Below, one piece after another: positions 432 to 63,913 of a DNA stretch of 64,000 bases. A program made the position numbers and the translations under genes. How positions within the stretch are numbered: position 1 is the stretch's first letter; the number at the start of each line of letters is the position of its first letter. A model generated the notes under the pieces. That model was not told the DNA's origin. It ran no database searches and saw only the letters and a program-made list of their open reading frames with translations. Source of the DNA: a virus; the IMG/VR virus record IMGVR_UViG_3300037069_000769, positions 38,322-102,321 of that record. One strand, 5' to 3'.

Positions 432-458
432 ATTTGCAAACGTTTGCACGAGGATTTC

Positions 459-2309
459 ATGGCGAACGAGAATACTGATCCCATCGTTCTTGAGGAGGGG
501 CACCCTCTCTCTAAGGCAATTCAAGAGGCTGCTCTTGAGGTTGGGGAAACGGATGAGACCGTCATCGAGGAGATTTTTATCACTGATAACGGTGAGGGCG
601 GCGATAAGCTCATGTCTGAGCTGGAGATCATCAAGTCCGTGCTGGCTTCTAGCATGTCGGGATTTGATAGCACTAAGATTCACAGGGAGGTGAATAATGC
701 CGCCATGTTCGACATGACGAAGACGGCAGACGTGTCTAAGTCTATTGTTGACGGCTCAACTCAGAGCGATTCCGAACTAGGTTGGAATGACCTGTCCATG
801 TATCAGGTTGTTGAGCCTCCGTATCCGCCCCAGTTGATGTCAGCATTTTTGGAGGTGGATTCGACCCACTTCCGATGTGTTCGTACTAAGGTGACGGATG
901 CAGTCGGTAAGGAGTACATGATTGAGCCTGTAACCCTGCCTGACGGCACGCCCTATAAGCCGTTTGAGGGGGAGATTACTAAGCAAGTTGAAGCTGAGAT
1001 CACGGAAGTTAAAAACTTCATTGACGATTGCAATGAGATTATTGGCTTCGACGGTGTGCTCGAACGGGTGGGCATGGACTATGAGGCTATCGGTTGGGGA
1101 GCGATCGAAGTTATTCGTGGTCGGGATATGAAGGTTAAAAAACTTGCCCATCTTCCGGCATCTCGTATCCGAGTGTTGCGAGGGTGGGGAGGCTTCGTCG
1201 AATCTTTGGTAAATGGCAAGTTTATTTACTATCAGAACTTTGGGGACAAGGTTGTATCCACGACAGAAACTGATCCGTTTACTGATAGACCTGTAGCATA
1301 TGATCCTAAACGTGACGGCACCTTGAATGGTAGTAGTGCCAAGTGGAGTTTGATCGATAGGCATTCCGGAAAGCCTACTGCCGATTTCAGCAATTCGGCT
1401 AACGAGGTTATTTGGATTCCTCGACACCACTGCTCGACCATCTATTACGGGTTGACCGACGTGTTGCCGGCTCTCGGTGATCTGCTGGCGAATGTGCATA
1501 TCCGGGATTACTTGCTACAGTTCTTTGAGCATAACACGATTCCACGGTATGCAATCATCATCAAGGGAGCTAAGATTGCTGACGGGGTGAAGAAGGAGAT
1601 TCTCAAATTCTTCAGCGATCATATCAAAGGCAAGGCCCATAAGACTCTGATTATTCCCATCCCTGCGGTACGCGGTGAGGTGGAGATTAAGTTCGAGAAG
1701 CTTGCTGCGGATGTGACTGAGGGCTCGTTTCAAGATACCCGAAAGAACAACTCTCAGGGCATCCTTACTGCTCACGGTGTTAGTCCCGCTATTATCGGCA
1801 TTAACGATGCGGCAAGTCTTGGCTCAGGTAAGGGTATGTCCCAAGCCGAAATCTACAAGGATCGCATCGTAACGCCGTCTCAGCGGCGATTTGCTCGACC
1901 TCTGAACCGATTATTCCGGATTGGACTCGGAATCAAGATTGTAGCTCTGAAGTTTAGCCCTCTCGACATTCGAGATTTGGAAGCTGAGATGCAGATTTAC
2001 ACCGGTTATCTTGATAAAGGTTGCATGACTATCAATGGGGTTATTAAGAAAGTCGGCCTTGGTGATCCCATTGAGGGCGGTGATCGAGCCTTTATTGTGT
2101 TGCCGCACATTGGGATACAGTTTGTCGATGAGATGACTACTCAGGTGAGTCAGCAAATGCAAGACTTGCAGGATCAAGTAGACTCTGCAAAGCAGGAGCT
2201 TCAGAACCGGGCACTCCAACAGAAGGCTCAGCAGGCAGCACAGAATGGTCAAAAACCTCAGCAATCCGCCAAGTCTTCTAAGTCTGCCAACAGTGGAGCT
2301 GGAAAATAG
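459..2309 (+). CDS. portal protein
   Basis: About 617 aa after terminase; DYEAIGWGAIEVIR, FFEHNTIPRYAIIIKG, ILTAHGVSPAIIG typical of HK97/PBSX-type portals; ATG at 459 with GAGG RBS. Confidence 0.9.
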   Translation: MANENTDPIVLEEGHPLSKAIQEAALEVGETDETVIEEIFITDNGEGGDKLMSELEIIKSVLASSMSGFDSTKIHREVNNAAMFDMTKTADVSKSIVDGSTQSDSELGWNDLSMYQVVEPPYPPQLMSAFLEVDSTHFRCVRTKVTDAVGKEYMIEPVTLPDGTPYKPFEGEITKQVEAEITEVKNFIDDCNEIIGFDGVLERVGMDYEAIGWGAIEVIRGRDMKVKKLAHLPASRIRVLRGWGGFVESLVNGKFIYYQNFGDKVVSTTETDPFTDRPVAYDPKRDGTLNGSSAKWSLIDRHSGKPTADFSNSANEVIWIPRHHCSTIYYGLTDVLPALGDLLANVHIRDYLLQFFEHNTIPRYAIIIKGAKIADGVKKEILKFFSDHIKGKAHKTLIIPIPAVRGEVEIKFEKLAADVTEGSFQDTRKNNSQGILTAHGVSPAIIGINDAASLGSGKGMSQAEIYKDRIVTPSQRRFARPLNRLFRIGLGIKIVALKFSPLDIRDLEAEMQIYTGYLDKGCMTINGVIKKVGLGDPIEGGDRAFIVLPHIGIQFVDEMTTQVSQQMQDLQDQVDSAKQELQNRALQQKAQQAAQNGQKPQQSAKSSKSANSGAGK

Positions 2310-3387
2310 CCTTAGGCACGCTCAACGCAAGATCATCATCGTAAAGGCCGCTACTTCCGGTATGCGGTTAATGCTGGAAGATGCGTTTCAGGATCAGCTT
2401 CAGAGATTCATTCGGGCATGGCACGTTCGGCTTAGTCGTCACCTTGAAAGTGTTGAGTACTTCAAACGTGCTGTGACCGATGCTCGAATCCTTAAAGCTA
2501 AGAGTACCTCAATAAGCGATCTTAGGCGTAGAGTTAATACCTCGTTCGCCTCTGATCTTGATCCGCTGCTGGAAGAGTTTCGACGCATTATTGTTACTGC
2601 TCCTATTGAGAAGTACTATGTGCGATGGGCACCTCTGGTGTTTAGCTTAGGGGCTGTGACAACTCTGAACACGTTTGGAGTACATGCTCGAAGTCCCGCT
2701 CTTGAGACTTTTCTTAGGGTGGGTGTTGTCTCCAAGGCGTCGGGGGGCGAAGATTTTACGTTTGAGTTGAGTGATGCTGCGATTATCCATGCCTTAGAGA
2801 GTCGTGGTATTATCGTAGGTGCGGGCTTAACTCACGACATTATCGAGGATGCTCGAAGCTTAATCCGAGACAAGGTGTACTTGGGAGGCTCGGATGTTGC
2901 TGACATTGCTGAGGAGCTGGCTTCTGCCCACGCTATAGCTGACTGGCGTGCTTTGTCTATCGCTAGAACTGAGACGCAGGCCGCGTTCAACCTTGCATCG
3001 TATCGGATGTTTGAGCGGTCAGGCGTACAGAAACAGTTCTGGGTCACAGTTGGAGATAACCGGGTAAGACCTCAGCACGTAGCTAATGAGGAAGCCGGAG
3101 CAGTTCAGATAGGTGTACCTTTTCCTAGCGGTCAGCTTCATCCGGGAGACGGGCCACTATCTGTTAATTGTAGATGCAGCCTTCTCCCTGACTTGAGTGA
3201 TCCGTCGATCTTGTTGAACCCTTGGGATGGGAAGTCTGGACCGTTCTTATCTACGGATGCTGGAGCAACCTTGCCGGCTGTTCGACGATTTAGTAAGAGA
3301 TTGTCAATTCCGCATGGTATCGCTCCGGGAGTGTCAGACGCCCGAGTTGACTTGGCAGATGAAGAGTTACTCTTTCCTGAAGAGTGA
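2245..3387 (+). CDS. head morphogenesis protein (SPP1 gp7 / Mu gpF-like)
   Basis: IARTETQAAFN, WVTVGDNRVRPQH and NCRC motifs; follows portal; start uncertain. Confidence 0.88.
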   Translation: MVKNLSNPPSLLSLPTVELENSLRHAQRKIIIVKAATSGMRLMLEDAFQDQLQRFIRAWHVRLSRHLESVEYFKRAVTDARILKAKSTSISDLRRRVNTSFASDLDPLLEEFRRIIVTAPIEKYYVRWAPLVFSLGAVTTLNTFGVHARSPALETFLRVGVVSKASGGEDFTFELSDAAIIHALESRGIIVGAGLTHDIIEDARSLIRDKVYLGGSDVADIAEELASAHAIADWRALSIARTETQAAFNLASYRMFERSGVQKQFWVTVGDNRVRPQHVANEEAGAVQIGVPFPSGQLHPGDGPLSVNCRCSLLPDLSDPSILLNPWDGKSGPFLSTDAGATLPAVRRFSKRLSIPHGIAPGVSDARVDLADEELLFPEE

Positions 3388-3409
3388 TACCTGTTAATAA
3401 GATACGAAT

Positions 3410-3471
3410 TGTCAGCCCCCTTAAAGATTTTTTAGGCGGGGGTTGACAGTTCCTTTTTTACAGTGTAGACT
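3410..3471 (+). promoter_or_regulatory. hairpin overlapping a sigma70-like promoter
   Basis: TGTCAGCCCCC...GGGGGTTGACA stem; TTGACA(3443)-17 nt-TAGACT(3466). Confidence 0.55.
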
Positions 3472-3536
3472 GGGTGAATTGCGGCAGTGGTGGTTGGTAC
3501 TTAGTTTCACATTCCTTTTGCAAACGTTTGCAAACT

Positions 3537-5782: not shown

Positions 5783-6426
5783 GCCGTCGCAAAATTGTTG
5801 CGGGCACTGCCAGTAATCTTATACCTGTGTTCGTGAGGGATACTAGTAAGACTGACGGTTCTGGATTATCTGTAGCTTACAACGCCTCCGGCCTAACTGC
5901 TGAGTATCGTCGTAAGGGATCATCGTCTTGGACCTCAATCAGCGTTGTTACGAAAACCCTCGGAGTATTCACAAGTGGGGGTTGGTGTGCGGACGGCAGC
6001 TTAACCGGAGCCCATGAGTTTGCTCCCCCTGACGCTGCTTTTGCTGCTGGGGCAACTTCGGTAGCTCTCAGAGTGTACGGTGTAACTAATATGTTACCCG
6101 TGCTTCTTGAGTTTGAGTTGATGACTTTTAACGATCAGGCTGCTGGAGGTAAAGTACCTGTAGCGGCTAAGGGATTGGCGATAAGTAACTTCGGCTTCAT
6201 TATGCGAAGTTCAACGTCTAAGGCCCCGACTCCCGGTTTGACTGTGACGGCTCAGAGAAGTTTGGACGGTGCAGCGTTTGGGGCCTGTGATAACTCTCCC
6301 TCGGGTATCGGTAGCGGGGCATACAGTATCAATCTAAGCACCGCTGACACCAACGCTAACGTAGCGATGTATATGTTTACGGCTACTGGAGCTGATCCGA
6401 CCTTTGTTGAGATGCTTTTTCAATGA
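5779..6426 (+). CDS. hypothetical, probable structural beta-rich protein
   Basis: 215 aa, ATGA coupling with upstream gene, beta-strand-like composition. Confidence 0.6.
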   Translation: MSRRKIVAGTASNLIPVFVRDTSKTDGSGLSVAYNASGLTAEYRRKGSSSWTSISVVTKTLGVFTSGGWCADGSLTGAHEFAPPDAAFAAGATSVALRVYGVTNMLPVLLEFELMTFNDQAAGGKVPVAAKGLAISNFGFIMRSSTSKAPTPGLTVTAQRSLDGAAFGACDNSPSGIGSGAYSINLSTADTNANVAMYMFTATGADPTFVEMLFQ

Positions 6427-7175
6427 TGATCTTTTGCGGTAACGCGATTGTCGAGGAAAGGTACTTTGAAGGGGATTGGGGCACTGAACTGCGGGGTTTT
6501 TCAGACTCCTTAACTTTGCAAACGTTTGCAATTTTTTTGAGTTCTGTTACGCGGCAGGGTTTTGAAGCTATCAATTTACCGTCTGTCAGTAGTGCGTCAG
6601 GTTCAGTAGGGGTTGGGGTAGTTGGAAGTCTCAGTGCCTCAGCGACTGGCAACCTACAGAGTGGTGATGTGGTGGGAGTTGTAGCCGACCTTGAGTTAAG
6701 TGTCGCAAATTTGTATGCTACCTCAGGGGTTGTGAGTGCTGAGGTATCATTTGCTGCGAACTCGGTGTGCGAACTTCTTCTGACTGCGGTTAATCAACTT
6801 CACGAGGTTATTGAATCTGATGCCGTAGCTAGTGAGATAATGTCGGCTCAAAATGAGCTTGTGGGTAGTCTAACTGAGATCGTTCGGGCTGGCTTATTGG
6901 GGCAGTTGTCAAATTCAATCGCGGATCAGATGACCTTAGGGATTTCGGCCGAGATTGCGTTTTCTGCCGGCAAGCATTACATTGAGAGTTTTGCCCTAGC
7001 CGTGTTGTCCCAACTGGAGCTTGCTGGGGTCTCCGGACGAACGTTTAACGTATTGAGGGTGTTGGGCGAAGCTTTTAAGCAAGCTCTAATGTCCATCGAA
7101 TCTCTCACGCAAGGTGACATGATTGATGAGACGCTTCGAGATAGCGATCTAACTGACGAAACATTTCTTCCTTGA
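6423..7175 (+). CDS. hypothetical protein
   Basis: 250 aa, ATGA-coupled; contains palindrome copy 6517 (LQTFA). Confidence 0.6.
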   Translation: MMIFCGNAIVEERYFEGDWGTELRGFSDSLTLQTFAIFLSSVTRQGFEAINLPSVSSASGSVGVGVVGSLSASATGNLQSGDVVGVVADLELSVANLYATSGVVSAEVSFAANSVCELLLTAVNQLHEVIESDAVASEIMSAQNELVGSLTEIVRAGLLGQLSNSIADQMTLGISAEIAFSAGKHYIESFALAVLSQLELAGVSGRTFNVLRVLGEAFKQALMSIESLTQGDMIDETLRDSDLTDETFLP

Positions 7176-7186: not shown

Positions 7187-8044
7187 ATGAAGTGGCTGTT
7201 TCAACTGATCTCCGCTCTGTACCGTGCCTATACCCCCGGCAGCTTGTTCGGTCAGACTACCGTTTTGAACTTCAAGTCTGAGTGTAGAGATTCAGATGGG
7301 AAACTTCGCTGGACGGATGATGTAAACCTCCCAGTGGTGATTGCTGGCAATATCCTTCCGCTATTGGGGCTGTTTGTAGCGTTGTCGCTGCTAGTGCCAT
7401 ACGGCAGTTGGATCGCCTTGGGGTTAGTGACCACCGCGGGCCTCAATAAGTTGCTTGACGCAACCGTTAAGACTGGTTTGACTTCGCCCGCATGGTACGT
7501 TGGGCTTATTGGGGCTAAAGTTACTGACGGTGCGATGACGGCATCGTCGGCTACTTTGACTTCGGCAAGTAATCCGTTTGCATCCGGTGATGTTGGCTTG
7601 CATATCATTGTTCGTGGTGCGGGAGCGGCTGGAGCCGATCTTTACACTACGATCAGTGCTTATACTAATGCTGGCCAAGTTACTCTGGCGGCTACGGCTG
7701 GGACAACTGTAAGTGGGGCTGGGGTAGCCTTCGATCCCCGTCCTGCTGACACGATGGCCTCGCATTCGTTTGTAAGTGTTACTCCGTTCAGTAACTCTAC
7801 TCGACCTGCTTGGACTCCGGGCAGCATCTCTGCGGGGTCTGTGAGTAATTCGGGTTCTCCCGCAGTGTTCACCGTCAATGCTTCGTCATACGTGTTCGGG
7901 GCGTTTCTTGCTGACGATAGCGGTGTTAGCGGTACTACCGGAACTCTGTACGGAGGATCAATGTTTACTGGAGGTATCGCTCGGCAGGTGGCCAGTGGTG
8001 ATACTTTGACTGTAACTGGGACTCTTACAGTGACGGCAGCATGA
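7187..8044 (+). CDS. hypothetical virion protein
   Basis: T/S/G/A-rich; LVTTAGLNKLLD...WYVGLI...GDTLTVT resembles phage minor structural proteins; N-terminal hydrophobic stretch. Confidence 0.6.
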   Translation: MKWLFQLISALYRAYTPGSLFGQTTVLNFKSECRDSDGKLRWTDDVNLPVVIAGNILPLLGLFVALSLLVPYGSWIALGLVTTAGLNKLLDATVKTGLTSPAWYVGLIGAKVTDGAMTASSATLTSASNPFASGDVGLHIIVRGAGAAGADLYTTISAYTNAGQVTLAATAGTTVSGAGVAFDPRPADTMASHSFVSVTPFSNSTRPAWTPGSISAGSVSNSGSPAVFTVNASSYVFGAFLADDSGVSGTTGTLYGGSMFTGGIARQVASGDTLTVTGTLTVTAA

Positions 8045-8400: not shown

Positions 8401-8435
8401 TGCAAACGTTTGCAATTTCCTCACAGGTGTGTAGC

Positions 8436-9956: not shown

Positions 9957-10023
9957 GTTCCAATCTCAACTGCATTGTCGCTTTGCAAACGTTTGCAAGG
10001 GTCACTTTTTTCTGGGGTGTTGA

Positions 10024-11092: not shown

Positions 11093-12268
11093 ATGGATGG
11101 GTTCAAGGTAGTGGATGGGGAAGAACCTCGTGCCTCGATTCCTGACGGGTGGTTCAGTAAGTCAGATGGTCCCCCTCTTAGAGTTGCGTTGAAGTTTGTT
11201 GGCGGAGTTGGTGACATTACGATGGCTATAGGGGGCACAGCTTCAGCCCTCGACGGGCGGTCTTGTTTCGTTGACGCCTTTGTTCTGCCTCACCAAGTTA
11301 AGTATGCTGCGATACTCTCAGGCATTCGTAAGGCATACCCCGTTGCAAGTTGGAATGAGCCTGAAACACGTTTTCAGTATGATGTGGTCATTGACTTCGC
11401 AGGTGTTCTGAATAACGCCCGAAGCTTGAAGGCCAAAGATTACTACGAATTGATTAGCGAGCGGGTGGGCACGTTAGTCAAGCCGGGATCGTATTTGGGA
11501 TTTACGTTTAAGCCTCAACCGGTAGCATGTGTGGCACTTCACCCCGGAGCAAGTAACCCGAACCGACGTTGGCCTTATTCAAATTGGGATAAGTTAGCAT
11601 ACATGCTGGCATCCCGAGAGCTAGAAGTGTTGTGGCTTGGAACCCGTGACGATTACGGGTTTAACGACGAGAAATGCGGAATTTGGAAGCTGAGTGATTA
11701 CTACGAAGATTTGGTAACTCAGACCAAGAAGCTTGCCACGTTCCGATATTTCATTGGAAATGATTCAGGATTTGCACACATCGCCGGCCTGCTAGGCGTA
11801 CCCGGAGTGGTACTGTTTAGTTCGACCCACCCCGACGATGTGATTGCGAGATACGATTCTTTGAGAGGTGTTCACCGATTCGATTTAGTCGGAGAGCCTA
11901 CTCGAAGTTTGGATAAGAAAGACCGGAGGTCATTGGACGCACTGGAGGCACTTACTCCAGAAGACGTGTTGAATGCCACCCCTTTCAAGGATACTCCTGA
12001 TAAGCAGCAGATAAAAAGGCCGCTGCCTGCTCGAAGACGCAAGATTGTTTTGGTTGGGTCGATCCCACTTGCTGACCGTTTGTACGAGTTCTTAGCCGAT
12101 CTATATGATGTGGAACGGAGTAAGAATGTGTCAGAGAACTTAGAGTACGATGGACTCTTGGTTATCTCTGAGGCTGGTTGTGAATTACGAACGGCAAAAA
12201 ACGTAAGTAGGGTAAACGTGAGTGACTTTGAAAACGTCACTAGGGCAATCCGTGAACGACTTGCGTAG
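11093..12268 (+). CDS. glycosyltransferase family 9 (heptosyltransferase-like)
   Basis: GGVGD, YDVVIDF, LHPGASNPNRRWP, FIGNDSGFAHIAGLLGVPGVVLF. Confidence 0.9.
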   Translation: MDGFKVVDGEEPRASIPDGWFSKSDGPPLRVALKFVGGVGDITMAIGGTASALDGRSCFVDAFVLPHQVKYAAILSGIRKAYPVASWNEPETRFQYDVVIDFAGVLNNARSLKAKDYYELISERVGTLVKPGSYLGFTFKPQPVACVALHPGASNPNRRWPYSNWDKLAYMLASRELEVLWLGTRDDYGFNDEKCGIWKLSDYYEDLVTQTKKLATFRYFIGNDSGFAHIAGLLGVPGVVLFSSTHPDDVIARYDSLRGVHRFDLVGEPTRSLDKKDRRSLDALEALTPEDVLNATPFKDTPDKQQIKRPLPARRRKIVLVGSIPLADRLYEFLADLYDVERSKNVSENLEYDGLLVISEAGCELRTAKNVSRVNVSDFENVTRAIRERLA

Positions 12269-14219: not shown

Positions 14220-14245
14220 TTTTGCAAACGTTTGCACGGTGATCT

Positions 14246-48909: not shown

Positions 48910-49361
48910 TGTCTCTTGATCGTGCGGGACGAAAGCAGCCGGGAGCCCCAAAGTTGGGGTCAAAGAAGTCTGGAAAGGCTGCTGTAAACGAGCATGAGTA
49001 TGAGTTAGCTGAGAAACTGGGAGGTCGGCGACAGCCTGCCTCGGGAGCCTTAGCTGCTCATAAGGGAGACATTAAGACCCGAGATTTCCTGTTTGATTCG
49101 AAGGAGACGGAAGCAACTGCAATCAGTGTGTTCGGCACTGATCTTACGAAGATTACTCGTGAGGCTCGGGGTGAGGGTAAACATCCGGGCCTTGTTTTGA
49201 CTATTCGAGGGGTGCCGTCAACCACTGACAGTGAGTGGGCGTGCATCCCCTTGGATGTATTTGCAAGTATTCTTGCAGAATTGGAGAATCAACGTGAAGC
49301 CCTCAGAAAAAATCCGTCAGATGGTACAGCAGGCTCGGGACTCGGGGGAAGTAGTTCCTGA
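48909..49361 (+). CDS. PD-(D/E)xK nuclease, resolvase-like
   Basis: E..LA...GG...PASGA...KGDI...FDSK. Confidence 0.7.
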   Translation: MSLDRAGRKQPGAPKLGSKKSGKAAVNEHEYELAEKLGGRRQPASGALAAHKGDIKTRDFLFDSKETEATAISVFGTDLTKITREARGEGKHPGLVLTIRGVPSTTDSEWACIPLDVFASILAELENQREALRKNPSDGTAGSGLGGSSS

Positions 49362-50890: not shown

Positions 50891-51341
50891 TATAATCGAT
50901 CAGATAGAAGACACCGTTAAGGTGTTGCGGTCGTTTTATCTCTACGCCAGCATTAAACCTCAAGCTAAGCAGTCAGTGGCGTTTGGGAAAGGGCATGGGT
51001 TTACTCCACCCAAAAAGCGGGCCTACTTGAAGAATTTGGGTAAGAAGTTGGCAGAAAGTTACCCCACTCAAATGAAGGTATGTGGGCTCGTTCGTCTGAC
51101 TGTCCTGCTTTCGTTTCCTTGGCGAGAGACCGATTGTAAGAGTTTGCTGTGGGCGTTAATGGAAGAATCGCCTGATGTTGATAATCTCTACAAGCCTGTT
51201 GCTGATAGCTTGCAGGAGATATGCTTGAAGAATGACTCTCAAGTAGTGTCAATTCGGGTGCAGAAGATTAGGTCCGAGGATGTCGGAATTCTAGTCAAAG
51301 TCGAGGAAGTTATGGCAAATAGAGCAATTCAGCTAGGTTAG
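50748..51341 (+). CDS. RusA-like Holliday junction resolvase
   Basis: PDVDNLYKPVADSL...NDSQVV; true start probably near 50874. Confidence 0.8.
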   Translation: MLRNVCTVQCASGSWTLRSTLSRVRRELLRKVESCSICEGLVLKRLRDIIDQIEDTVKVLRSFYLYASIKPQAKQSVAFGKGHGFTPPKKRAYLKNLGKKLAESYPTQMKVCGLVRLTVLLSFPWRETDCKSLLWALMEESPDVDNLYKPVADSLQEICLKNDSQVVSIRVQKIRSEDVGILVKVEEVMANRAIQLG

Positions 51342-51473
51342 GAAGACCTCTGTAAAGTGCCCTCCAGAGCGTGCGTTCAAAATTTCCGACTCACGTATCG
51401 CCAAACTTAGTCGTGCTGCTAGCGTGATCCCAGAGAATTTCGACAAATTTTATGGAATTTTGTCGGATTCCTC

Positions 51474-51502
51474 TTGACAACGATTTGTGCGTATGCTACT
51501 AT
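51474..51502 (+). promoter_or_regulatory. sigma70-like promoter
   Basis: TTGACA-17 nt-TACTAT. Confidence 0.6.
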
Positions 51503-51649
51503 CGGATCATTGTTCGAGGTCTCAGGTTGAACCTCGTAGCCGGACACGCCTACCAGATAGTTTTTCAGAGAGAGTGTTGAAGATGCTTGGTGCAATTGGT
51601 GTGAGTGCAAACGGTTTGCAAAATTCGTTATAAATCGGGGCGAAATTCC

Positions 51650-51678
51650 TTGACTTTCTGACCCGGAAATGCGATACT
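51650..51678 (+). promoter_or_regulatory. repeated promoter (TTGACW-N17-GATAHT class)
   Basis: TTGACT-17 nt-GATACT preceded by TGC. Confidence 0.7.
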
Positions 51679-51725
51679 TAACTTATCAAACGTAATGTAT
51701 CGCAACCCCAGAAAGGAAGGAAAAC

Positions 51726-51929
51726 ATGCCAGCCGACAACTTGCGAATCGGAACTTACAAGGGTCAGCCTATGGTAGTCTTCGGACCGGCTGACGACAAG
51801 TTCCCCTTCCAATTCCAGAAGGGGAAGGCCGCGAAGATCGTTGAGGCGATTGCTGCTCATGGGTTGCATCAGGTGCTGGAGTCGATCTACACGGTCGCTG
51901 GGGTGCCGATGCCGTCCGATCTGTGCTAA
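51726..51929 (+). CDS. hypothetical protein
   Basis: AAGGAAGG RBS; YKGQP...FPFQFQKGKA. Confidence 0.7.
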   Translation: MPADNLRIGTYKGQPMVVFGPADDKFPFQFQKGKAAKIVEAIAAHGLHQVLESIYTVAGVPMPSDLC

Positions 51930-51991
51930 GGGATTTGCAAACGTTTGCAAGTCGTACTTTCAACCAACTGTAGCTGTTAGGAGAGTGTGTC

Positions 51992-53026
51992 ATGGCCAAG
52001 AAAACGAAAAGTTCGTCCGGCGTGGTGCCGGCTGACAAGACCCTGCCCGCAACGGGCGAAACGAAGGAAGCGAGTACGAAGATGAGTGACGAAGTGACCA
52101 CTACCCCTGCTCCCGAAGTGGCCGGCGAGGCCGAAGTGCTGACTCCGGAAGCTGAAACGAAGATCATCACGACCGGCAAGGCGACCGATCTGCTCGCCGA
52201 AGGTGGTGGGGTGTTTCTCCCGTCGGCCCTGAAGGGCGTGACCGATTTGGCCCAGCGTCAGGAGATGACCCGCCAGTACATCAAGCAGGCGGCTCAGGTC
52301 AGCGATCGGCTGAACCTCGTGGCCGGCGAGCTGCTGTTCGAGTGTGCCAAGAACGCCTACTGGAAGGAGTGGGAGTTCACCGACGAGAAGGGCGAGACCC
52401 GCAAGTACGCCAAGTTCGAGGAGTACTGCGATCACGAGTTCTCGCTCGGCTACCGGAAGGCCATGTACCTGATCTCGATGTACGAGAAGTTCATCGTCGA
52501 GCTGGACCTGCCCATCGACGTGCTCGGAGGTCTCGACTGGTCGAAGGCCAAGGAACTGGTGCCGGTCATCACGAAGGAGAATGCGGCAGACCTGCTCGAC
52601 AAGGCCAGCCACATGACCTTCAAGCAGGTGCAGGAACTGGCGAAGTCGATGAAGGCCGCGGCGAAGACCGGCACTGCCGGTGCTGCGACCGGAGCGTCCG
52701 AGCCCGCCGAGGTGAAGGAGAAGATCGCTTTCACGGTCCCGAAGGAGAAGGCCGAGACGATCCGTGCGGCACTCGCTCTGGCCGAAAGCCTGTCCGGGTC
52801 CGCTGATCCGGGAAGTCAGCTCGATTTCATCTGCTCCGACTTTACGGCCTCTTCCAGCGGCATGGGCACCGATGGTGCTCTCTCCAAGCTCGATGTCATC
52901 ATCAAGAACATCGAGCGGACGTTCCACGTCAAGCTGGAGATCACCAGTGTCGATGCCGATCACTACAAGACGGCTGCGGCTCCCGAAGTCCCCGCCGAGG
53001 GCGAAGTGCTCACTCCCGGTGCGTAG
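51992..53026 (+). CDS. putative DNA-binding protein (DUF3102-like core), strong codon bias
   Basis: GELLFECAK..YW...FEEYCDHEFSLGYRKAMYLI...LDWSKAKEL; mostly G/C-ending codons; long antisense shadow ORF. Confidence 0.6.
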   Translation: MAKKTKSSSGVVPADKTLPATGETKEASTKMSDEVTTTPAPEVAGEAEVLTPEAETKIITTGKATDLLAEGGGVFLPSALKGVTDLAQRQEMTRQYIKQAAQVSDRLNLVAGELLFECAKNAYWKEWEFTDEKGETRKYAKFEEYCDHEFSLGYRKAMYLISMYEKFIVELDLPIDVLGGLDWSKAKELVPVITKENAADLLDKASHMTFKQVQELAKSMKAAAKTGTAGAATGASEPAEVKEKIAFTVPKEKAETIRAALALAESLSGSADPGSQLDFICSDFTASSSGMGTDGALSKLDVIIKNIERTFHVKLEITSVDADHYKTAAAPEVPAEGEVLTPGA

Positions 53027-53073
53027 TCTCCGGGCCTGAGTGAGGAACATTCCTTGCAAGGGGTTGCAGGAAG

Positions 53074-53114
53074 ATGGGGAGTGGGGATTCGTTCCCTGCT
53101 CCCCATTCCTGTTT
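53074..53114 (+). terminator. GC-rich hairpin with TTCG loop
   Basis: ATGGGGAG...TTCG...CTCCCCAT then CCTGTTTT. Confidence 0.65.
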
Positions 53115-53144
53115 TGCAAACGTTTGCAAATTTGGAGAAATCTA

Positions 53145-53627
53145 ATGAGAGTGCTAACTCTCCAAGCGATGAAGAAGTTCGTCAAGTTCCCCGCTTACCT
53201 GTACACCAAGGATAAGTTGCAGCACTGGTGTGACCGGCTCACCTTGGACGAAGATGGTAAGGTTCTGCGAAGTCGGTATGCTTTGACCGGCAATGTGTCC
53301 TGCATGTGCCAGCAGTTCGCGGAGAACTTCAATACTACCCGAACCTGCTTGCACTTGCAACTGTTGACCGGGAAGTTTCCGGACGTGCTGGGCATCAGTC
53401 GAGTTGAAGCCATCGACGAGTGGACAAAGTTGATTGCGGGATTGCGGGGAGAGCACCCCGATTTGGTACAGACTATTGACGGAGAGATGGCTGAGATAAA
53501 TGTCCCTGACATCGTTGAGGCTATTTTTGTCCGGATTGCCTCGCAAGCTAAAGACTTCGACAGGTTGATCTATCGAGCTGAAGCTGAGTCGGGCAGTTCG
53601 TATTGGGTGTGCCTCATTTCTTCGTAA
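53145..53627 (+). CDS. SWIM zinc-finger protein
   Basis: SCMC..F......TCLH; GGAG RBS. Confidence 0.6.
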   Translation: MRVLTLQAMKKFVKFPAYLYTKDKLQHWCDRLTLDEDGKVLRSRYALTGNVSCMCQQFAENFNTTRTCLHLQLLTGKFPDVLGISRVEAIDEWTKLIAGLRGEHPDLVQTIDGEMAEINVPDIVEAIFVRIASQAKDFDRLIYRAEAESGSSYWVCLISS

Positions 53628-53634
53628 ATCTCTC

Positions 53635-53663
53635 TTGACTTTTTGTCGCCGATGTGCGATAAT
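53635..53663 (+). promoter_or_regulatory. repeated promoter
   Basis: TTGACT-17 nt-GATAAT. Confidence 0.75.
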
Positions 53664-53718
53664 ACTCCTACAAACGTCGGGTTCGGAAACGATTTTCGTA
53701 AGAAAGGATTAGGAGTAG

Positions 53719-55239
53719 ATGGCTGCAACCCCAATTAAGATGAACAAGGTGGTGGAGCTTTATATCCGGACGGGAGAGAGAACGTTCAAAGCCTTCCGCC
53801 TGATCGCATGGAAGTGCCGGGCATCTGCCGACTTGGAGGTCTTGTCTGTTGACGGAGACAAGGTCACAAAGGTCTCCTGCTCATGTGTGAAGTTCAAGGC
53901 CGAAAGTAAGTGCGATCACTCTGCTGCCCTGATCGGAGGTGTGTCTTATGCGGCCACGTCTCACGATGGGTGGAGTGAGATTGAGACTGTCGGCACGATG
54001 CGGGCCACCCTCAAGCGAACTGCCCTGATCGCTGACGATGTTCACGGTCTCGGAGTGCTGGCTGTTGTTCACCCGTCGCTGCCCGATCTGAACTTGGTGA
54101 ACTTTGGCTGGTTGATGTCGAACGCTGTGACTGAGGGCATTCGAGCCCAGACTGGCACCCTACGGCCTCAGCGGTTGTTTGACGAGAGCGTGCTGTCTGT
54201 TGAGAAGGGCTTTACGTTCGAGCATGCTGAGGTGACCGCCAAAGGTAAAGCCTGTACGGCGACTCAGTCCGAGGATGACGTTAAGCACATCATTACGGAG
54301 TTCGGGTTGTCTGAGTTCAAAGGATTTGCTCACGTCTCGGGAGGGATTCCGATGGGTGAGTCCTCTGAGCCCGAGCCTCCGGCCAGCAAGGCCCCGAGCA
54401 AAGCTAAGCCGTGGAACGACATCAAGCGTCCTGATCCCAGTACGTTCTACGTTGATCGGGATACGTGGACCCAGATGGTCTACGGTATGTTGAACGGCAA
54501 GAACATTCTGCTGACCGGACCGTCGGGGTCTGGAAAATCTGAGTTGTGTTATCAGGTGGCTGCTGCCTGCGGTCGCAAGCTGGAAGCGTTCAACATGGGG
54601 GCCATGAGTGAGCCTCGCACCAGCCTGATCGGTAACACTCACTTCGACCGAGAGAAGGGGACATGGTTTGCTATGTCCCGGTTTGCCCGAGGTGTGCAGA
54701 CGCCTAACGGAGTAATCTTGTTGGACGAGATGACCCGCTCTGATCGTGGAGCGTTCAACATTCTGCTGCCGCTGCTGGACCGTCAGGGCTATTTGGCTCT
54801 CGATGAATCCGAGGATGCGACAGTGATTCGCAAGGCTGAGGGTGTGTGCTTCCTCGTTACTGCGAATATCGGTATGGAGTACACTGGCACTGAAGCGATG
54901 GACAAGGCGGTGCTGGATCGCAATGCCATCGTGATTGACATGCAGTTTCCGCCTGCCGCCAGCGAAGTGCAGGTCTTGCTGGGTCGATGTCACGGTCTCT
55001 CCAACTTGCTCGCGAAGCGGTTGGTGGACTTGGCCGAGAGCCAGCGGCAACTGTGGCGTTCAGGAGACATGCAAACGGCGATCAGCACCCGAATGCTCAT
55101 TGAGGCTGGTGAGCAGATTTCGCGGGGAATGGACTTCAAGTTGGCCTGTAGGTTCTGTGTCGAGAATCACTTCTCCAACGAGGGTGATGACGACTCGGAG
55201 CGAACCAAGGTCAAGCAGCTTGTTCAGAAGGGCGGCTGA
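53719..55239 (+). CDS. MoxR/CbbQ-type AAA+ ATPase with N-terminal SWIM finger
   Basis: CSC..F.....CDH; GPSGSGKS, LLDEMTR, TANIG.EY.GT..MD.A..DR, ISTR. Confidence 0.9.
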   Translation: MAATPIKMNKVVELYIRTGERTFKAFRLIAWKCRASADLEVLSVDGDKVTKVSCSCVKFKAESKCDHSAALIGGVSYAATSHDGWSEIETVGTMRATLKRTALIADDVHGLGVLAVVHPSLPDLNLVNFGWLMSNAVTEGIRAQTGTLRPQRLFDESVLSVEKGFTFEHAEVTAKGKACTATQSEDDVKHIITEFGLSEFKGFAHVSGGIPMGESSEPEPPASKAPSKAKPWNDIKRPDPSTFYVDRDTWTQMVYGMLNGKNILLTGPSGSGKSELCYQVAAACGRKLEAFNMGAMSEPRTSLIGNTHFDREKGTWFAMSRFARGVQTPNGVILLDEMTRSDRGAFNILLPLLDRQGYLALDESEDATVIRKAEGVCFLVTANIGMEYTGTEAMDKAVLDRNAIVIDMQFPPAASEVQVLLGRCHGLSNLLAKRLVDLAESQRQLWRSGDMQTAISTRMLIEAGEQISRGMDFKLACRFCVENHFSNEGDDDSERTKVKQLVQKGG

Positions 55240-55368
55240 TCGGCTACGTTTGCAAACGTTTGCAAATGTTCGTGATCGCATATCTGATTGGAATGATTGT
55301 GCTTGCAGGATTGTGGGCAGTTCTTGGAGTGCGGATCAGAAAACTCTAAAAAACGCTCGCAACTTCTA

Positions 55369-55397
55369 TTGACAATCAGAGTACAGCTTGCGATAAT
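55369..55397 (+). promoter_or_regulatory. repeated promoter
   Basis: TTGACA-17 nt-GATAAT. Confidence 0.75.
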
Positions 55398-55439
55398 ATA
55401 TCGGTAGTCGATTCCCGCAACCCCGCAGGAGCAGGTATT

Positions 55440-58226
55440 ATGTCGTCGTGGTTCACTGAGGTTCGAGCAGTCCTGCTGGATGATTATCATCTGAAGTGGG
55501 ACAAGCTTGCCACGAAGGAGCGGGCTTATCTCGCCAAGCTTCGATCTGAGGGTTACTCTCCGTACGATGCGGCTCACAAGCTGTTCATGTCGGAAGAAGT
55601 TCTCGTTGAGGACGAAGCGAAACTTATCAGCGAGTTGACCGAAGAGTACGCTGTGATCTCCGAGTCTGACGAGGAGACAGGGTACATTGGCGATCTGTTG
55701 GGTCGGCTGTCAAAGTACGAGGGCAGCGATACTAAAACCTTGTCCTCTGCGTGGACTCGGGGCAGGTCTAAGAAGAAGGAGCCGCGAGGTATCGTTCTTG
55801 ATCTCATTAAGATCAAGAACGGTGTCCGCAGTCTGTTGCGGGCTCACGGCGTCCCGAAGAACCTCAAGTTGGAGCTTGCCAACATTACGGCAGGTGCCAG
55901 CGGCATGGCCGGATTCCATGACATTGGGACTTGGCGAAGGCCGTTCATCTTCCTTGACACGAAGGTGTACGACTCTTGCGATGCCCGCGAAGTGTACGAT
56001 GTGTACTGCGGGATCGGGCTGCATGAGGCCAGCCATATCAAGCATACCCGAACAATGTATGAGCGGTTAAAGTCCGGAAAGTTGGACAGTACTACCCGCC
56101 GTGCAATGTGGGAAGGCTTGTTCGAGGACGAGCGGATTGAGGAGTTGGTTCGACAGGAATCGCCCGGTTATGCTGGGTATCTCCAGATCATGCGTCGGGC
56201 CTTGTTTGAGAAGAAGGCGTTTGGTTGTGCCATGCGTAAATGGCATAACAAGATGACTGACCTTGACCGAGTGTGTTTGCTGATCTTCGGCCTCATTCGG
56301 TGTCCCTACCTGCTCAGCCCTGAGATGAAGGAATGGCGGACTCTCAAAGGTGAGTGTGTTTTCGAGAGTCTAAAGAAGTTGTTCCCGACGATCCCCGAAT
56401 CCGAAAGGATCGTGGAGATTTACGGTGAGCGACTGGAGAAATTCTGGACTCGCCTCCAAGCTGAATACAAGGAGCTGGCTAAGGCCCGTAAGGAGGAACT
56501 CGATAAGCTTCGGGGGAAGGACAAGCCTGCGAAGGATGACAAATCCGGGGAGTCTGCTGAAGGCACCCTAGTACCTACTGACACAGGGGAGACTGCTGAT
56601 GGACGAGTCAGCGATTCGGATGGTGGGATCAAAGGCGACAGTTCGGGAGCTGACTCCGGAGACGGAAGTTCTAGTGGTGACGACAGTGAACGGGGAGCCT
56701 CATCTGATTCCGACGAATCAGAAGAACTTGGAGATAGTGTTGGAGAGGGCGAAGATGATGCAGACGAGACCTCTGAACGAGCGGCCGAGAGAGTTGATCG
56801 AGGCGGAGTACGCGAAGGCTGTGAGACAGCCGGAAGTGACGTTGGCGACACAGGGGAGAGAGAACCGGAAGGATCGCTTGGCGAAGAAGGCGAGACTGAA
56901 GCGGGAGAGTTCGAGGAAACTCTCGAAGGCAGCCCGTCGGATGAAGAAGATGGTGAAGTAGACGATGAGCTTGAGCGGTTGAGAATGCAACTCGATGCCG
57001 ATGAGCGGGACGCTGAATTCTCTCGCCTTGCTGGTGAGTTGCATTCGATCATCAAGACGGCTGGGGATCGAGCTGCACGTCGAGCTTCTATGGATTTAAC
57101 GGAGGCCATGAAGGGCGGCAAAACCCTTAAAGACCTCTTCCCCGAAGTAGGGGTAGGTGGCGATGCCCGAGAAGCCTTGGAGAGAGCCTTCTCTGACCGC
57201 GAGGATGAGGGTAGATTCTCCATCGAAGATATTCGGCACATGATGGAGGTATTGGACGTAGTTACTGACTCGCTTGATGCTGAAGAAAGTACCGAGCTTG
57301 AGAAGGTGACGAAAGAGCGGATCGAATTCGGGGACGAGTGGTCTGCTGATGAGCGTCGAAAGTCCGAAGGTAGTCGATCTCACGCCGAGAAGCTTGACCG
57401 CAGAACTGTTATCATCCATCCGCAAGTGACTCAGTATGAGAAAGATAAGTATAATGCCTATCTCGACAAAGTTCGAGGTCAGGTCATGCGGATGCGGGGT
57501 GTTTTCCGTCTGAGATTGGGTAAGCGTCTCTACCAAGAGAATGAGCGGATCGAGGGCCGTCTCCATCGTCGGAAACTCAGTCAGATTATGAGTACCGATC
57601 GAGTGTTCTTCCAGCGTAATGAGAAGCATGCTCACGGGTTGGCCATCTGTTTGCTGCTCGATGAGTCAGGGTCGATGGGTAATGCCGGGCCGCACCCCAG
57701 TCGCAGCCCCAACCGAGCCCAGATTGCTCTCGAAGTAGCTATCCTGATCTCCGAGGCTCTTAAGGGACTTCCGGGTGTTGAGCTTGAGGTGTACAGCCAT
57801 GCAAGTTGCGGTGACTCTGACATGGACTGTCAGGTCAAGTATCTGTACGGTAAGAATAATCCCAAGTTGCAGGCTATAGCGGGCTTCGAGTCTGGGGCTC
57901 AGAATTACGATCATATGGCCCTGAAGACTGCTGGCGACCTGTTCATCGCTAACACTCAGAACACCAGCAGACTGATGATTGTCTTGTCCGACGGATCACC
58001 TTGCGGCTACATGTACGGTGGGGCAGTTGCCAACCGGCAGACTCGACAGGCCGTTCAGAATCTGGAGAAGCGTGGGGTCAAGGTGATGGGAGTAGCCATC
58101 CACGATTACAACGCATCCGCGATCTACGGGAAGAATACACTGAAGTTCCTTGACCTGTCTGACCTTATCAACCGCATGAGGCGGCTGGTGGTTCAGGTGA
58201 TTAAGCAGAATTCGTCGCTCGAATGA
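55440..58226 (+). CDS. CobT/NorD-like vWA protein with HExxH domain and long acidic linker
   Basis: HEASH...FEDERIE; D/E/S/G-rich linker; LLLDESGSM MIDAS, VLSDGSP. Confidence 0.88.
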   Translation: MSSWFTEVRAVLLDDYHLKWDKLATKERAYLAKLRSEGYSPYDAAHKLFMSEEVLVEDEAKLISELTEEYAVISESDEETGYIGDLLGRLSKYEGSDTKTLSSAWTRGRSKKKEPRGIVLDLIKIKNGVRSLLRAHGVPKNLKLELANITAGASGMAGFHDIGTWRRPFIFLDTKVYDSCDAREVYDVYCGIGLHEASHIKHTRTMYERLKSGKLDSTTRRAMWEGLFEDERIEELVRQESPGYAGYLQIMRRALFEKKAFGCAMRKWHNKMTDLDRVCLLIFGLIRCPYLLSPEMKEWRTLKGECVFESLKKLFPTIPESERIVEIYGERLEKFWTRLQAEYKELAKARKEELDKLRGKDKPAKDDKSGESAEGTLVPTDTGETADGRVSDSDGGIKGDSSGADSGDGSSSGDDSERGASSDSDESEELGDSVGEGEDDADETSERAAERVDRGGVREGCETAGSDVGDTGEREPEGSLGEEGETEAGEFEETLEGSPSDEEDGEVDDELERLRMQLDADERDAEFSRLAGELHSIIKTAGDRAARRASMDLTEAMKGGKTLKDLFPEVGVGGDAREALERAFSDREDEGRFSIEDIRHMMEVLDVVTDSLDAEESTELEKVTKERIEFGDEWSADERRKSEGSRSHAEKLDRRTVIIHPQVTQYEKDKYNAYLDKVRGQVMRMRGVFRLRLGKRLYQENERIEGRLHRRKLSQIMSTDRVFFQRNEKHAHGLAICLLLDESGSMGNAGPHPSRSPNRAQIALEVAILISEALKGLPGVELEVYSHASCGDSDMDCQVKYLYGKNNPKLQAIAGFESGAQNYDHMALKTAGDLFIANTQNTSRLMIVLSDGSPCGYMYGGAVANRQTRQAVQNLEKRGVKVMGVAIHDYNASAIYGKNTLKFLDLSDLINRMRRLVVQVIKQNSSLE

Positions 58227-59382: not shown

Positions 59383-59420
59383 TACTGCCGAATAACCCTA
59401 ACTTGCAAACGTTTGCAATT

Positions 59421-62478: not shown

Positions 62479-62521
62479 GAAAGCAATTTGCAAACGTTTG
62501 CAAAAATCGGGCAAATTTCTC

Positions 62522-62851: not shown

Positions 62852-63307
62852 GTGATGACTGATATAAAGTATGCTGAGAAATTTGAGACTCCTGAAGATT
62901 GTCAGGTGATTGCTGTCGTCGGGCCAACTGGGAGACTCTGCGGAAGTGTTGCCCCTGACTATCACGAGAGAGCAAACTTTGGAGCAGATTGTAGGTATCT
63001 GTATCTGACCTTTGAAGACCTAAATCTGCTCAAATCGTGGTGGGAGAGTGCTTGGGGTAAGAAGCTTCGGGAGACTAGCCCTCTCGATGATCCAGACAAA
63101 ATCTGGGCAGCTTTAAGACTCTGGGACGAGGGGACTGAGTGTCTTGTTGAGGGGCATGCTGATAGTCTCGGGTACGATTATTCAGACATGGGCATATATG
63201 AGTTGTCTAAGACCCTCCTTGATCTGGCGGAGTCTGAAGAGGATTTTCCTGATAAGAGTGATCTTTGTGACTACCTTCGGCATGTGATCTCCAGAATCCC
63301 TCACTGA
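62852..63307 (+). CDS. hypothetical protein
   Basis: 151 aa acidic ORF. Confidence 0.55.
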   Translation: MMTDIKYAEKFETPEDCQVIAVVGPTGRLCGSVAPDYHERANFGADCRYLYLTFEDLNLLKSWWESAWGKKLRETSPLDDPDKIWAALRLWDEGTECLVEGHADSLGYDYSDMGIYELSKTLLDLAESEEDFPDKSDLCDYLRHVISRIPH

Positions 63308-63360
63308 CAGGTCACCCTCCTTTTGAGGACCCTCCTTTAGAAGACCCTCCGTAGGAATGT

Positions 63361-63600
63361 GTGATGAGTACTCCGTATAAACCTCAGAAGTACGACCTTG
63401 CCGGATTTGATCTGGTAGGGTACAGACAGCCTGATGGCTCGATTCGGCTGGGCTCCAAGGTGATCGTCTCTGAGTTTCCACCCGAGGTTGAGCTGATCGG
63501 AGTTGTGTACACTCTGGAGGAGATTGTGGTGAACGACAAGGATGGTACGTTGTCTGAAGACCATCCGGGCAAGCATTTGATGTGGGGCATTTACGTTTAG
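63361..63600 (+). CDS. hypothetical protein
   Basis: 79 aa ORF. Confidence 0.55.
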   Translation: MMSTPYKPQKYDLAGFDLVGYRQPDGSIRLGSKVIVSEFPPEVELIGVVYTLEEIVVNDKDGTLSEDHPGKHLMWGIYV

Positions 63601-63663
63601 CTGTGTGATCTCCAAGTATGTAGCTGGAGAGATTGATCGCAACCCCCCAGAGAGGGGTATGAG

Positions 63664-63897
63664 ATGTCTGAGCCTGTTCAAGGTCCGACTGTGTACGAAG
63701 CCGCGATGACCAGAATTCGTCGGATTGATGCTAACATTGCGGAGCTTCAGAACGAGCGTGCTCTGTGTAAGCGTCGGGCTGATAGGTATATGAATAGCCC
63801 GATGCTTGAAGCTGAGCGTATTGCTACTGAGGCTGAGAAGTTTCTACCGCCCTTGCCCGATGACTTCACGATGCTCGGGGCCAACCCCGACGAGTGA
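63664..63897 (+). CDS. hypothetical protein
   Basis: GAGG RBS; palindrome 2 nt after stop. Confidence 0.55.
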   Translation: MSEPVQGPTVYEAAMTRIRRIDANIAELQNERALCKRRADRYMNSPMLEAERIATEAEKFLPPLPDDFTMLGANPDE

Positions 63898-63913
63898 TCT
63901 GCAAACGTTTGCA

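Follow-up and report, generated by a model that had tools for sequence, protein, structure and literature searches.

The stretch of DNA examined here, a window of 64,000 nucleotides, corresponds to bases 38322-102321 of the IMG/VR virus record IMGVR_UViG_3300037069_000769 (102,321 bp; CheckV completeness ~80%) and is marked by the repeated occurrence of a 14-bp palindrome, TGCAAACGTTTGCA. We refer to the whole record as G000, and coordinates are those of the window unless preceded by this name. Every long open reading frame (ORF) of G000 lies on the + strand and ~90% of the record is coding; gene calls are crude and were made for this analysis. Structural proteins encoded in the window are a portal, a Mu-F-like protein, a 1342-aa tape-measure protein and one that is scaffold- or protease-like. 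The window also specifies DnaB, primase, PolA, a helicase, RecA, ThyX, several glycosyltransferases and a MoxR/CbbQ-type ATPase partnered by a VWA protein. The part of G000 ahead of the window contains the terminase genes, a gene for a protein with only a ParB_N domain, two genes for Xre-type helix-turn-helix (HTH) proteins, and genes for a ligase, a radical-SAM enzyme and more enzymes acting on sugars. The present work concerns the arrangement of the palindrome along this genome, its counterparts in related phages, and a protein encoded in the window, P0001, that may bind it.

The palindrome and its copies

A previous reading of the window from its letters alone and without database searches (hereafter the sequence-only reading) had counted 27 exact copies of TGCAAACGTTTGCA, all of which were found again at the same positions, and our scan of the whole record brought the number to 44. 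Its estimate that practically no copy is expected by chance was likewise borne out, with none in 100 dinucleotide-preserving shuffles of the window, and a reversed control pattern matched the whole record once, versus the 44 occurrences of the motif. When up to three mismatches were tolerated, the window yielded 38 matches for 2.5 expected. One-mismatch variants number nine in the whole record and four in the window, namely TGCAAACGTTTTCA at 25458-25471 (49 nt past a consensus promoter at 25381-25409), TGCAAGCGTTTGCA at 26064-26077 and TGCAAACGCTTGCA at both 33925-33938 and 39218-39231. Other variants in the window are a 15-bp form, TGCAAACGGTTTGCA, at 51606-51620, upstream of a promoter at 51650-51678, and TGCAAGGGGTTGCA at 53055-53068, after the P0001 gene. 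The bases flanking the 14-mer in G000 favour T or G on the 5' side and A or C on the 3' side, and the palindrome is longer by at least 1 bp in half of the copies and by 6 bp per arm in two.

The array is not an assembly artefact, a possibility raised with the sequence-only reading, because Logan contigs from three soil-metagenome runs, in which the phage reaches a depth of ~200-400x and which are possibly the source samples themselves, reproduce window 40001-56000 with zero differences, and because one of the low-depth pieces from a fourth study, of another year, spans the site at 55251 and leaves it unchanged. The same soil samples also contain contigs of 17-27 kb, at ~2x the phage depth, in which the palindrome and flanks of window 41854-41879 recur with two differences; there may be another abundant element with this motif in those samples. 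The motif itself was also considered as a promoter, with TTGCAA as the -35 element, and was rejected as such, no conserved -10 element being found at the proper distance.

Spacing along the genome

The 43 gaps between the 44 copies have a mean of 2354 bp and a coefficient of variation (CV) of 0.50, and their extremes across the record, 433 and 5152 bp, are the very ones that the sequence-only reading had given for the window; the longest gap covers the 4-kb tape-measure gene. A CV of 0.50 or less was reached in none of 20,000 random placements (CV mean ~1.0), which bears out the regularity that the sequence-only reading had called a lattice, and in none of 20,000 random draws from the ~150 gene starts (CV about 0.98 for either kind of simulation). 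Short gaps are avoided although gene junctions come every ~0.7 kb.

Seven copies lie deep within ORFs of at least 150 aa, using all three frames, and fall in the six longest junction-to-junction gaps, which measure 3.3-9.1 kb against a median of ~2 kb elsewhere (Mann-Whitney P = 2e-5). The five that are alone in their gap sit at 0.45-0.63 of its length, and where one gap contains two copies, these sit at 0.34 and 0.80. When seven copies were placed at random in long ORFs, the observed CV was reached in 0.02% of trials, and removal of the intragenic copies raised the CV to 0.72 and the largest gap to 9.1 kb. Since the intragenic copies are found mid-way in the longest gaps, the spacing along the DNA is itself under selection. 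Even spacing also characterizes relatives with the identical 14-mer, described below (CV 0.41-0.64, P from 0.025 to <1e-4), with P values of 0.007 in G002, 0.007 in G003 (<1e-4 with one-mismatch sites) and 0.001 in G004 with one-mismatch sites.

Position relative to genes

About 30 of the 44 copies are located in intergenic DNA, which makes up only ~10% of the genome, and the copies hug ORF ends. At tight junctions, the copy stands 0-27 nt past the stop and 3-32 nt before the next start. In ten longer intergenic regions, 4-32 nt separate the copy from the start codon, and a promoter, a tRNA or a non-coding stretch lies upstream of it (e.g. 3519, 30719 and 32984), and about eight other copies lie past the stop and ahead of a promoter (e.g. 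55251 and 62489).

Numbering the exact copies along the window, site 1 (435-448) occupies a gene junction, 3 nt past the upstream stop and 10 nt before the portal start at 459, and site 2 (3519-3532) lies in a 5' leader, 48 nt past a sigma70-like promoter (3443-3471) and 4 nt before the ATG at 3537. Junctions also hold site 4 (8401-8414), directly past the stop at 8400 and 21 nt before the start at 8436; site 5 (9984-9997), preceding the capsid gene; site 6 (14223-14236), 3 nt past a stop and 9 nt before the ATG at 14246; site 7 (16314-16327), 31 nt before the ATG at 16359; site 8 (16747-16760), 16 nt past a stop and 13 nt before the ATG at 16774, at the end of the shortest gap; and site 11 (27371-27384). 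Site 9 (21899-21912) follows the tape-measure gene, 3 nt past the stop at 21895 and 25 nt before the ATG at 21938, while site 10 (24914-24927) follows a terminator-like hairpin (24878-24905) and precedes the ATG at 24940 by 12 nt. Three replication genes have a copy behind them: DnaB (site 17, 41855-41868, 23 nt past the stop at 41831), PolA (site 19, 45779-45792, 9 nt past the stop at 45769) and RecA (site 20, 48640-48653, 2 nt past the stop and 10 nt before the ATG at 48664). Towards the end of the window, site 24 (55251-55264) lies past a stop and 104 nt upstream of a promoter (55369-55397), site 25 (59404-59417) 3 nt before the ATG at 59421, site 26 (62489-62502) past a stop with TTGACT 19 nt downstream, and site 27 (63900-63913) past a stop, then a terminator-like hairpin.

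Two copies are associated with tRNA sequences in the window, each 2-4 nt downstream of them. Site 13 (30719-30732; 16 nt before the ATG at 30749) stands 3 nt past a tRNA at 30646-30715, which scores 50 bits with Rfam and whose anticodon was not assignable by ARAGORN; site 12 (28701-28714; 12 nt before the ATG at 28727) follows a tRNA-like 3' end at 28680-28697 that is called by neither ARAGORN nor Rfam. A further tRNA-like end with a copy is found outside the window, at G000 29679. Site 14 (32984-32997) closes a long non-coding leader, 32 nt before the ATG at 33030. The promoter of this leader, at 32594-32622, is near-consensus (TTGACA-17-TACAAT with TG) and is followed by ~350 nt without a + strand ORF; the stretch 32594-32983, at whose end the palindrome copy stands, contains a hairpin with a 9-bp stem (32826-32846) and matched no Rfam family.

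Intragenic copies read L/V-Q-T-F-A, x-A-N-V-C-K or C-K-R-L-H. Those of the window are site 3 (6517-6530; codon 32 of ORF 6423-7175), mid-way between sites 2 and 4 and after a hairpin at 6493-6509; site 15 (36019-36032; codon 209 of the glycosyltransferase gene 35394-37160, within the Pfam domain, reading LQTFAK); site 16 (40078-40091; codon 41 of ORF 39956-40531, reading SANVCK); and site 21 (50417-50430; codon 125 of ORF 50045-50890, reading CKRLHA).

The placement of copies close to ORF ends, at both edges of intergenic regions, would also suit recombination linkers, or a small mobile element, at the borders of gene cassettes, aiding module exchange among related phages. Fourteen base pairs is short for RecA-type recombination, but the phage does encode RecA, and phages with little other similarity share the identical 14-mer. 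Moreover, deletions by recombination between such repeats are reported for Cluster O mycobacteriophages (PMC4351075). We nevertheless consider this explanation improbable, as it accounts neither for the even spacing nor for the avoidance of short gaps and the mid-gap intragenic copies, and neither target-site duplications nor longer conserved flanks were seen. If the copies are instead sites for a DNA-binding protein, the edges of intergenic spacers would be preferred for carrying no protein-sequence cost, and a site would be written into coding sequence where none is present within ~3-5 kb.

A DNA site or an RNA element

With all genes on one strand, every copy is transcribed, and the element could act on RNA as a short hairpin immediately upstream of the ribosome-binding site, read by an RNA-binding protein or a nuclease, for translation control or for the cutting of polycistronic transcripts into ~2-kb units. 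The copies that shortly precede a start in the ten long intergenic regions fit this idea, several G003 copies even ending 2 nt before the ATG, as do those found directly after the tRNA (30719) and the tRNA-like ends (28701 and G000 29679). One copy, site 18 (43738-43751), forms the apex of a strong terminator-like hairpin (43729-43760; 14-bp stem, -23.5 kcal/mol).

Site 18 is, however, the only copy built into a strong hairpin, and the motif itself does not form the stable stem-loop of intrinsic terminators (where a U-tract is added) or of repetitive extragenic palindromic (REP)-like hairpins. The bare 14-mer would fold with only -2.9 kcal/mol (-4.8 for the 18-mer) and does no better than shuffles in its natural context, flanking bases show no covariation extending the stem (22 paired versus 23.4 expected), and conservation in G003 and G004 is confined to the 14-mer. 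Relatives whose motif has a non-palindromic centre (CA/TG or CC/GG) carry it in both orientations on the coding strand, start-proximal copies included, with counts of 6:3, 4:3, 2:5 and 5:3 in loci L273, L286, L300 and L304, respectively; as RNA, the two orientations would give differing loops. In addition, the seven intragenic copies are placed by DNA spacing and not by start codons, and the roughly eight copies that hug the preceding stop lie upstream of promoters. The weak RNA hairpin, the lack of covariation, the use of both orientations and the fact that spacing explains the intragenic copies therefore favour a double-stranded DNA site read symmetrically, and we regard an action on RNA as quite unlikely. 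No RNA run is listed among the public runs that hold the phage.

Related phages and their motifs

Megablast with 12 kb as query found no match among INPHARED phages, and a PolA-based search of IMG/VR for related loci gave no relatives. Protein comparisons place Rhodobacter phage RcZahn, the Rhizobium phages RHph_TM16 and RHph_Y1_11, and Vibrio/Aeromonas siphophages of ~80 kb closest among cultured phages; all of these share with G000 an identical gene order in the replication-recombination module. RcZahn is virulent and circularly permuted, with all 147 genes in the same direction, and the paper describing it makes no mention of palindromes (PMC8601537).

A scan of IMG/VR for the 14-mer itself turned up long contigs rich in copies, with 13 copies in 46 kb (G001), 17 in 98 kb (G002), 14 in 85 kb (G003) and 16 in 66 kb (G004). 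The motif hence extends, as the sequence-only reading had proposed to verify, over the full genome (44 copies) and into related phages. G001 and G004 overlap and are moderate kin of G000 (45% aa identity for the portal, 33-38% for PolA), and G002 and G003 show only 23-33% aa identity to G000, in the DnaB-primase-PolA-helicase-RecA module and the capsid protein. Despite this divergence, the identical 14-mer is kept in all four, mostly just 5' of start codons. The P0001 profile had no match in five other IMG/VR records bearing the 14-mer, namely one complete provirus (4 copies) and four fragments (2-3 copies), and such low-copy occurrences are probably ordinary operators.

From IMG/VR, 70 loci encoding a member of the P0001 family were fetched. 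Many of the 70 have their own iterated 14-mers of the form TGCAA-N4-TTGCA or TGAAA-N4-TTTCA: TGCAATCAATTGCA is present in many loci, with up to 9 copies in 20 kb, and further motifs comprise TGCAATTAATTGCA, TGCAATTAACTGCA, TGCAACAAGTTGCA, TGCAACCCGTTGCA and TGCAGACATCTGCA as well as TGAAATCGATTTCA, TGAAATTAATTTCA and TGACATTAATGTCA. Most of the relatives' motifs are without a central CG (e.g. TGCAATCAATTGCA, TGCAATTAATTGCA, TGCAACATATTGCA and TGCAACAAGTTGCA). The complete genomes of the cultured phages RcZahn and RHph_TM16 contain 9 and 17 matches to TGCAA-N4-TTGCA, respectively, the reversed control giving 0. Vibrio phage 1 (JF713456), also cultured, has no such site; a word resembling a half-site, TTAATTGCAAA, recurs there 6-7 times within 40 kb and may represent a degenerate or asymmetric form of the array. 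Lineages thus agree in the outer TGCA(A) and differ in the inner bases, the central CG of G000 being one variant.

These comparisons bear on the resemblance to LacI/PurR/CcpA operators noted in the sequence-only reading. As a ~16-bp palindrome with a central CG and a GCAAAC half-site, the G000 motif has the form of LacI/PurR-family operators, and its central 12 bp, GCAAACGTTTGC, correspond to the PurR-box core. The phage might accordingly mimic operators of its host, being regulated by the repressor or titrating it, for instance to derepress purine synthesis. An 18-mer, TTTGCAAACGTTTGCAAA, occurs in single copies in >120 diverse bacterial genomes versus ~9 expected in a genome-collection scan, which would fit a common operator type, and these single copies are probably ordinary LacI-family operators; the carriers, which include Bacteroidota, Anaerolineae, Clostridia, Massilia and Vibrio, are too diverse to give a clue to the host. 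The 12-bp string also appears in a paper on the PurR regulon (PMC3159470), and cloned sites are known to titrate PurR in E. coli (PMC3266220).

The relatives of the same architecture, however, use TGCAATCAATTGCA, TGCAACATATTGCA, TGCAACCCGTTGCA, TGCAATTAATTGCA and similar words, mostly without the central CG, and what they share with G000 is TGCAA-N4-TTGCA and not a LacI box. Because the central CG is one lineage variant among many, the main support for a LacI/PurR-type operator is gone, and the resemblance is probably coincidental. Titration of a host LacI-family regulator, another suggestion of the sequence-only reading, would depend on copy number, and neither on even spacing nor on the filling of gaps inside genes. 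Iteration and even spacing are likewise not properties of PurR/LacI operators. The phage has no LacI-family gene, a search with PF00356 over the whole record giving only a sub-threshold match of 14.9 bits to an Xre-type ORF of 89 aa. Mimicry of host operators appears very improbable to us.

The candidate binder P0001

P0001 is a 344-aa protein encoded on the + strand at 51992-53026, with a predicted ParB/Noc-like HTH fold and without a CTPase domain. Its gene is bracketed in G000 by four sites or variants, the order being the 15-bp variant (51606), the promoter (51650-51678), a 67-aa ORF, site 22 (51936-51949, 42 nt before the gene), P0001, the variant at 53055, a strong hairpin (53073-53107) and site 23 (53115-53128). 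No family could be assigned to P0001 in Pfam, PHROGs or NCBIfam, and a sequence search of the PDB gave nothing significant. The AlphaFold2 model has a predicted local distance difference test (pLDDT) score >90 over residues 100-220, residues 1-54 being disordered. ParB, Spo0J and Noc proteins account for all of the top ten Foldseek matches in the PDB (probability up to 0.98, E ~0.2), the best being Spo0J-parS and Noc-NBS complexes, and the structural neighbours in the ESM Atlas include DUF3102 and ParB-family clusters; judged from this model, similarity to ParB-type proteins is moderate. The conserved core of the family, F..Y....lG..YRKAMYLI.IY...LP......W(S/T)KAKEL, is one that we take to parallel the ParB HTH segment. 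A homodimer was modelled with a median score of 0.46 versus 0.00 for the best control (pLDDT at least 71; at least 89% of contacts in agreement over three runs). Among proteins solved as pairs, 20 of 30 reached this score, as did 1 of 23 among those solved as single chains. P0001 would hence consist of a ParB/Spo0J/Noc-type HTH domain and a dimerising C-terminal part, the N-terminal CTPase domain being absent. A profile search retrieved 4,845 clusters at 50% identity with E <=0.001, and 1,176 with E <=1e-30; homologues are encoded in G001, G002 and G003.

The genes of this family are associated with the sites. A near-palindromic site lies within 250 nt upstream of the P0001-family gene in 24 of 60 non-redundant loci (4.9 expected; P = 3e-10), compared with 9.5% of the remaining ORFs (at least 100 aa, same strand) of these loci, and gp66 of RcZahn, a member of the family, has TGCAATTAATTGCA 74 nt upstream. 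The orthologue in RHph_TM16 is EVB27_031. Across the relatives, TTGAC follows within 36 nt of 17% of sites versus 3.7% in the control, with a sharp peak at 8 nt, which places a subset of these sites at a fixed distance upstream of a putative -35 element.

Among the functions offered by the sequence-only reading, a protein that binds the whole genome at regular intervals is the one that stands as best supported, by the even spacing, the symmetric conservation and the predicted ParB fold of the candidate. We estimate at about an even chance that the 14-mers form a genome-wide, evenly spaced array of DNA sites for a dimeric phage protein, with P0001 as the best candidate. Dimers of this phage-encoded protein, most likely P0001, would sit on about 50 evenly spaced sites, and we infer that their occupancy would either organise the replicating phage chromosome or control its transcription globally, by roadblock, by promoter occlusion at a promoter-proximal subset, or by bridging, in analogy to KorB-OB on plasmid RK2 and Noc-NBS on the Bacillus chromosome. 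Even spacing would imply a process with limited reach along the DNA. As P0001 is without a CTPase domain, short-range bridging or looping, a roadblock to RNA polymerase at junctions, or the marking of phage DNA would be equally possible. More specifically, the P0001 family and the spaced TGCAA-N4-TTGCA tags (one per 2-6 kb) could make up a chromosome-marking or -organising system with a reach of 1-2.5 kb (loop bridging, short-range spreading, or self-marking against a phage or host nuclease) and not ordinary promoter control, a proposal that we advance tentatively, as a possible but somewhat doubtful one.

Several observations weigh against P0001 as the protein occupying the array. The putative recognition helix, YRKAMYLIxIY, is near-invariant though the inner bases of the motif differ among phages, no covariation between its residues and the motif was seen, and the G003 homologue is very divergent while the motif there is identical. 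P0001 has no match to PF02195, the ParB_N/CTPase domain that lets ParB and KorB slide, and RcZahn has no ParB_N protein either. The arrangement of a site followed by TTGAC is rare in G000 (2 of 44), where few sites are near promoters, and many copies in long spacers stand 3-32 nt before the start whatever the distance of the promoter, for which an RNA role would be the natural explanation. Finally, other candidates are at hand: an 83-aa Xre-type HTH protein (G000 7258-7506), whose gene has the one-mismatch variant TGAAAACGTTTGCA just before it (G000 7235-7248) and inside it (G000 7412-7425), and a second Xre-type protein of the HTH_3 family.

The array could thus consist of DNA sites for another binder, either one of these small Xre/Cro-type proteins or a host nucleoid protein, P0001 being merely regulated. 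Cro-like dimers typically bind palindromes of 14-17 bp, and the two HTH_3 proteins, the variants at the 83-aa gene and the lack of covariation in the P0001 helix all fit. The small HTH proteins, however, have no BLAST homologues in G001-G004, whereas P0001 has relatives in three of these, and in the 60 loci a site precedes the P0001-family gene far more often than other genes. Variation of the motif tracks the phage lineage even between hosts as far apart as Rhodobacter and Rhizobium, which further disfavours a single host protein. We judge a binder other than P0001 unlikely.

The ParB_N-only protein (P0017) has 251 aa, a GGEHRWRSA box and no recognisable HTH; its gene (G000 34586-35341) adjoins those of the small and large terminase subunits, just before them and outside the window. 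Relatives occur in G002, G003 and RHph_TM16, and none was found in RcZahn or in the partial G004. A split ParB made of P0017 and P0001 is disfavoured by this absence.

Comparison with known systems

The IncP plasmid RK2 has about 12 KorB sites, versus 44 or more sites in G000, and we know of no even spacing or in-gene copies described for RK2. KorB is a ParB-type HTH protein that binds as a dimer, and P0001 has a predicted ParB-like HTH fold; some relatives' sites are, as in the KorB-OB system, directly upstream of a -35 element. The KorB operator is a palindrome of similar size dispersed over the replicon. KorB is a clamp of the ParB family whose reach extends to promoters 1.5 kb away from its operator (PMC11790492), a distance of the same order as half the site spacing in G000. 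KorB differs in having an N-terminal CTPase domain and in sliding, P0001 being without such a domain. Since the cultured relative RcZahn is virulent, the array is probably not a plasmid system.

Another parallel is the 17-bp dyad repeat of Cluster O mycobacteriophages, TGTTCGGNNNCCGAACA, with 34 copies and invariant 7-bp inverted arms; the authors proposed that a dimeric regulator binds it, did not expect it to act in transcription and left the function unexplained (PMC4351075). Both arrays have invariant 7-bp arms and >30 copies between and inside genes, orientation is without meaning, and most copies are not near promoters. The likeness is one of kind: the Cluster O repeat differs in sequence, host phylum, phage group and its 3-bp spacer, and neither even spacing nor a ParB-fold binder candidate was reported for it.

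Noc-NBS, SlmA-SBS and ParB-parS likewise involve palindromes of 12-16 bp, scattered on a chromosome and read by an HTH dimer. They differ in being cellular, in the CTP-dependent spreading of ParB and Noc, for which P0001 has no CTPase domain, and in their known roles in segregation or division. The stoperators of Cluster A (L5 gp71) and the start-associated sequences of Cluster K resemble the array by their many short sites at junctions over a whole phage genome. Both of these site types are, however, asymmetric and point in the direction of transcription, and the role of stoperators is lysogenic silencing in temperate phages. The G000 sites are perfect palindromes, relatives with asymmetric centres have them in both orientations, and the cultured relative RcZahn is virulent (PMC8601537), so that the likeness to stoperators drawn in the sequence-only reading is poor. 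No integrase family is among the Pfam families found in G000 1-36 kb, in a record that is ~80% complete. The array does not appear to belong with stoperators, start-associated sequences, REP elements or LacI regulons.

Our literature search found no paper on TGCAA-N4-TTGCA arrays, on the P0001 protein family or on selection on spacing, and did not find the motif strings in a phage context. Palindromes scattered over the genome are known from a few phage groups, Cluster O among them, but had gone without an explanation. What is new here is the quantitative proof of selection on spacing and not mere presence, with an array that is even in four divergent phages; a motif class common to a wide group of siphophages of 80-130 kb, including the cultured RcZahn and RHph_TM16; and a concrete candidate binder from a very large family without a Pfam model. 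Should the link between P0001 and the sites hold, it would assign a function to thousands of hypothetical phage proteins and would mean that the ParB-type site arrays of plasmids and chromosomes are also used in lytic phage infection, possibly for global transcription control, DNA organisation or self-marking.

Other features of the phage

The MoxR/CbbQ-type AAA+ ATPase is encoded at 53719-55239 and is followed at 55440-58226 by a 928-aa protein with a C-terminal VWA domain (CobT-like PHROG); RcZahn-like phages have AAA ATPases at the same place. The set of sugar enzymes is unusually rich (window 11093-12268, 33384-34820 and 35394-37160; G000 25468-34586), comprising at least five glycosyltransferases, a DegT aminotransferase, a radical-SAM enzyme, methyltransferases and a NUDIX protein, and suggests modification of DNA, of the virion or of the host envelope.

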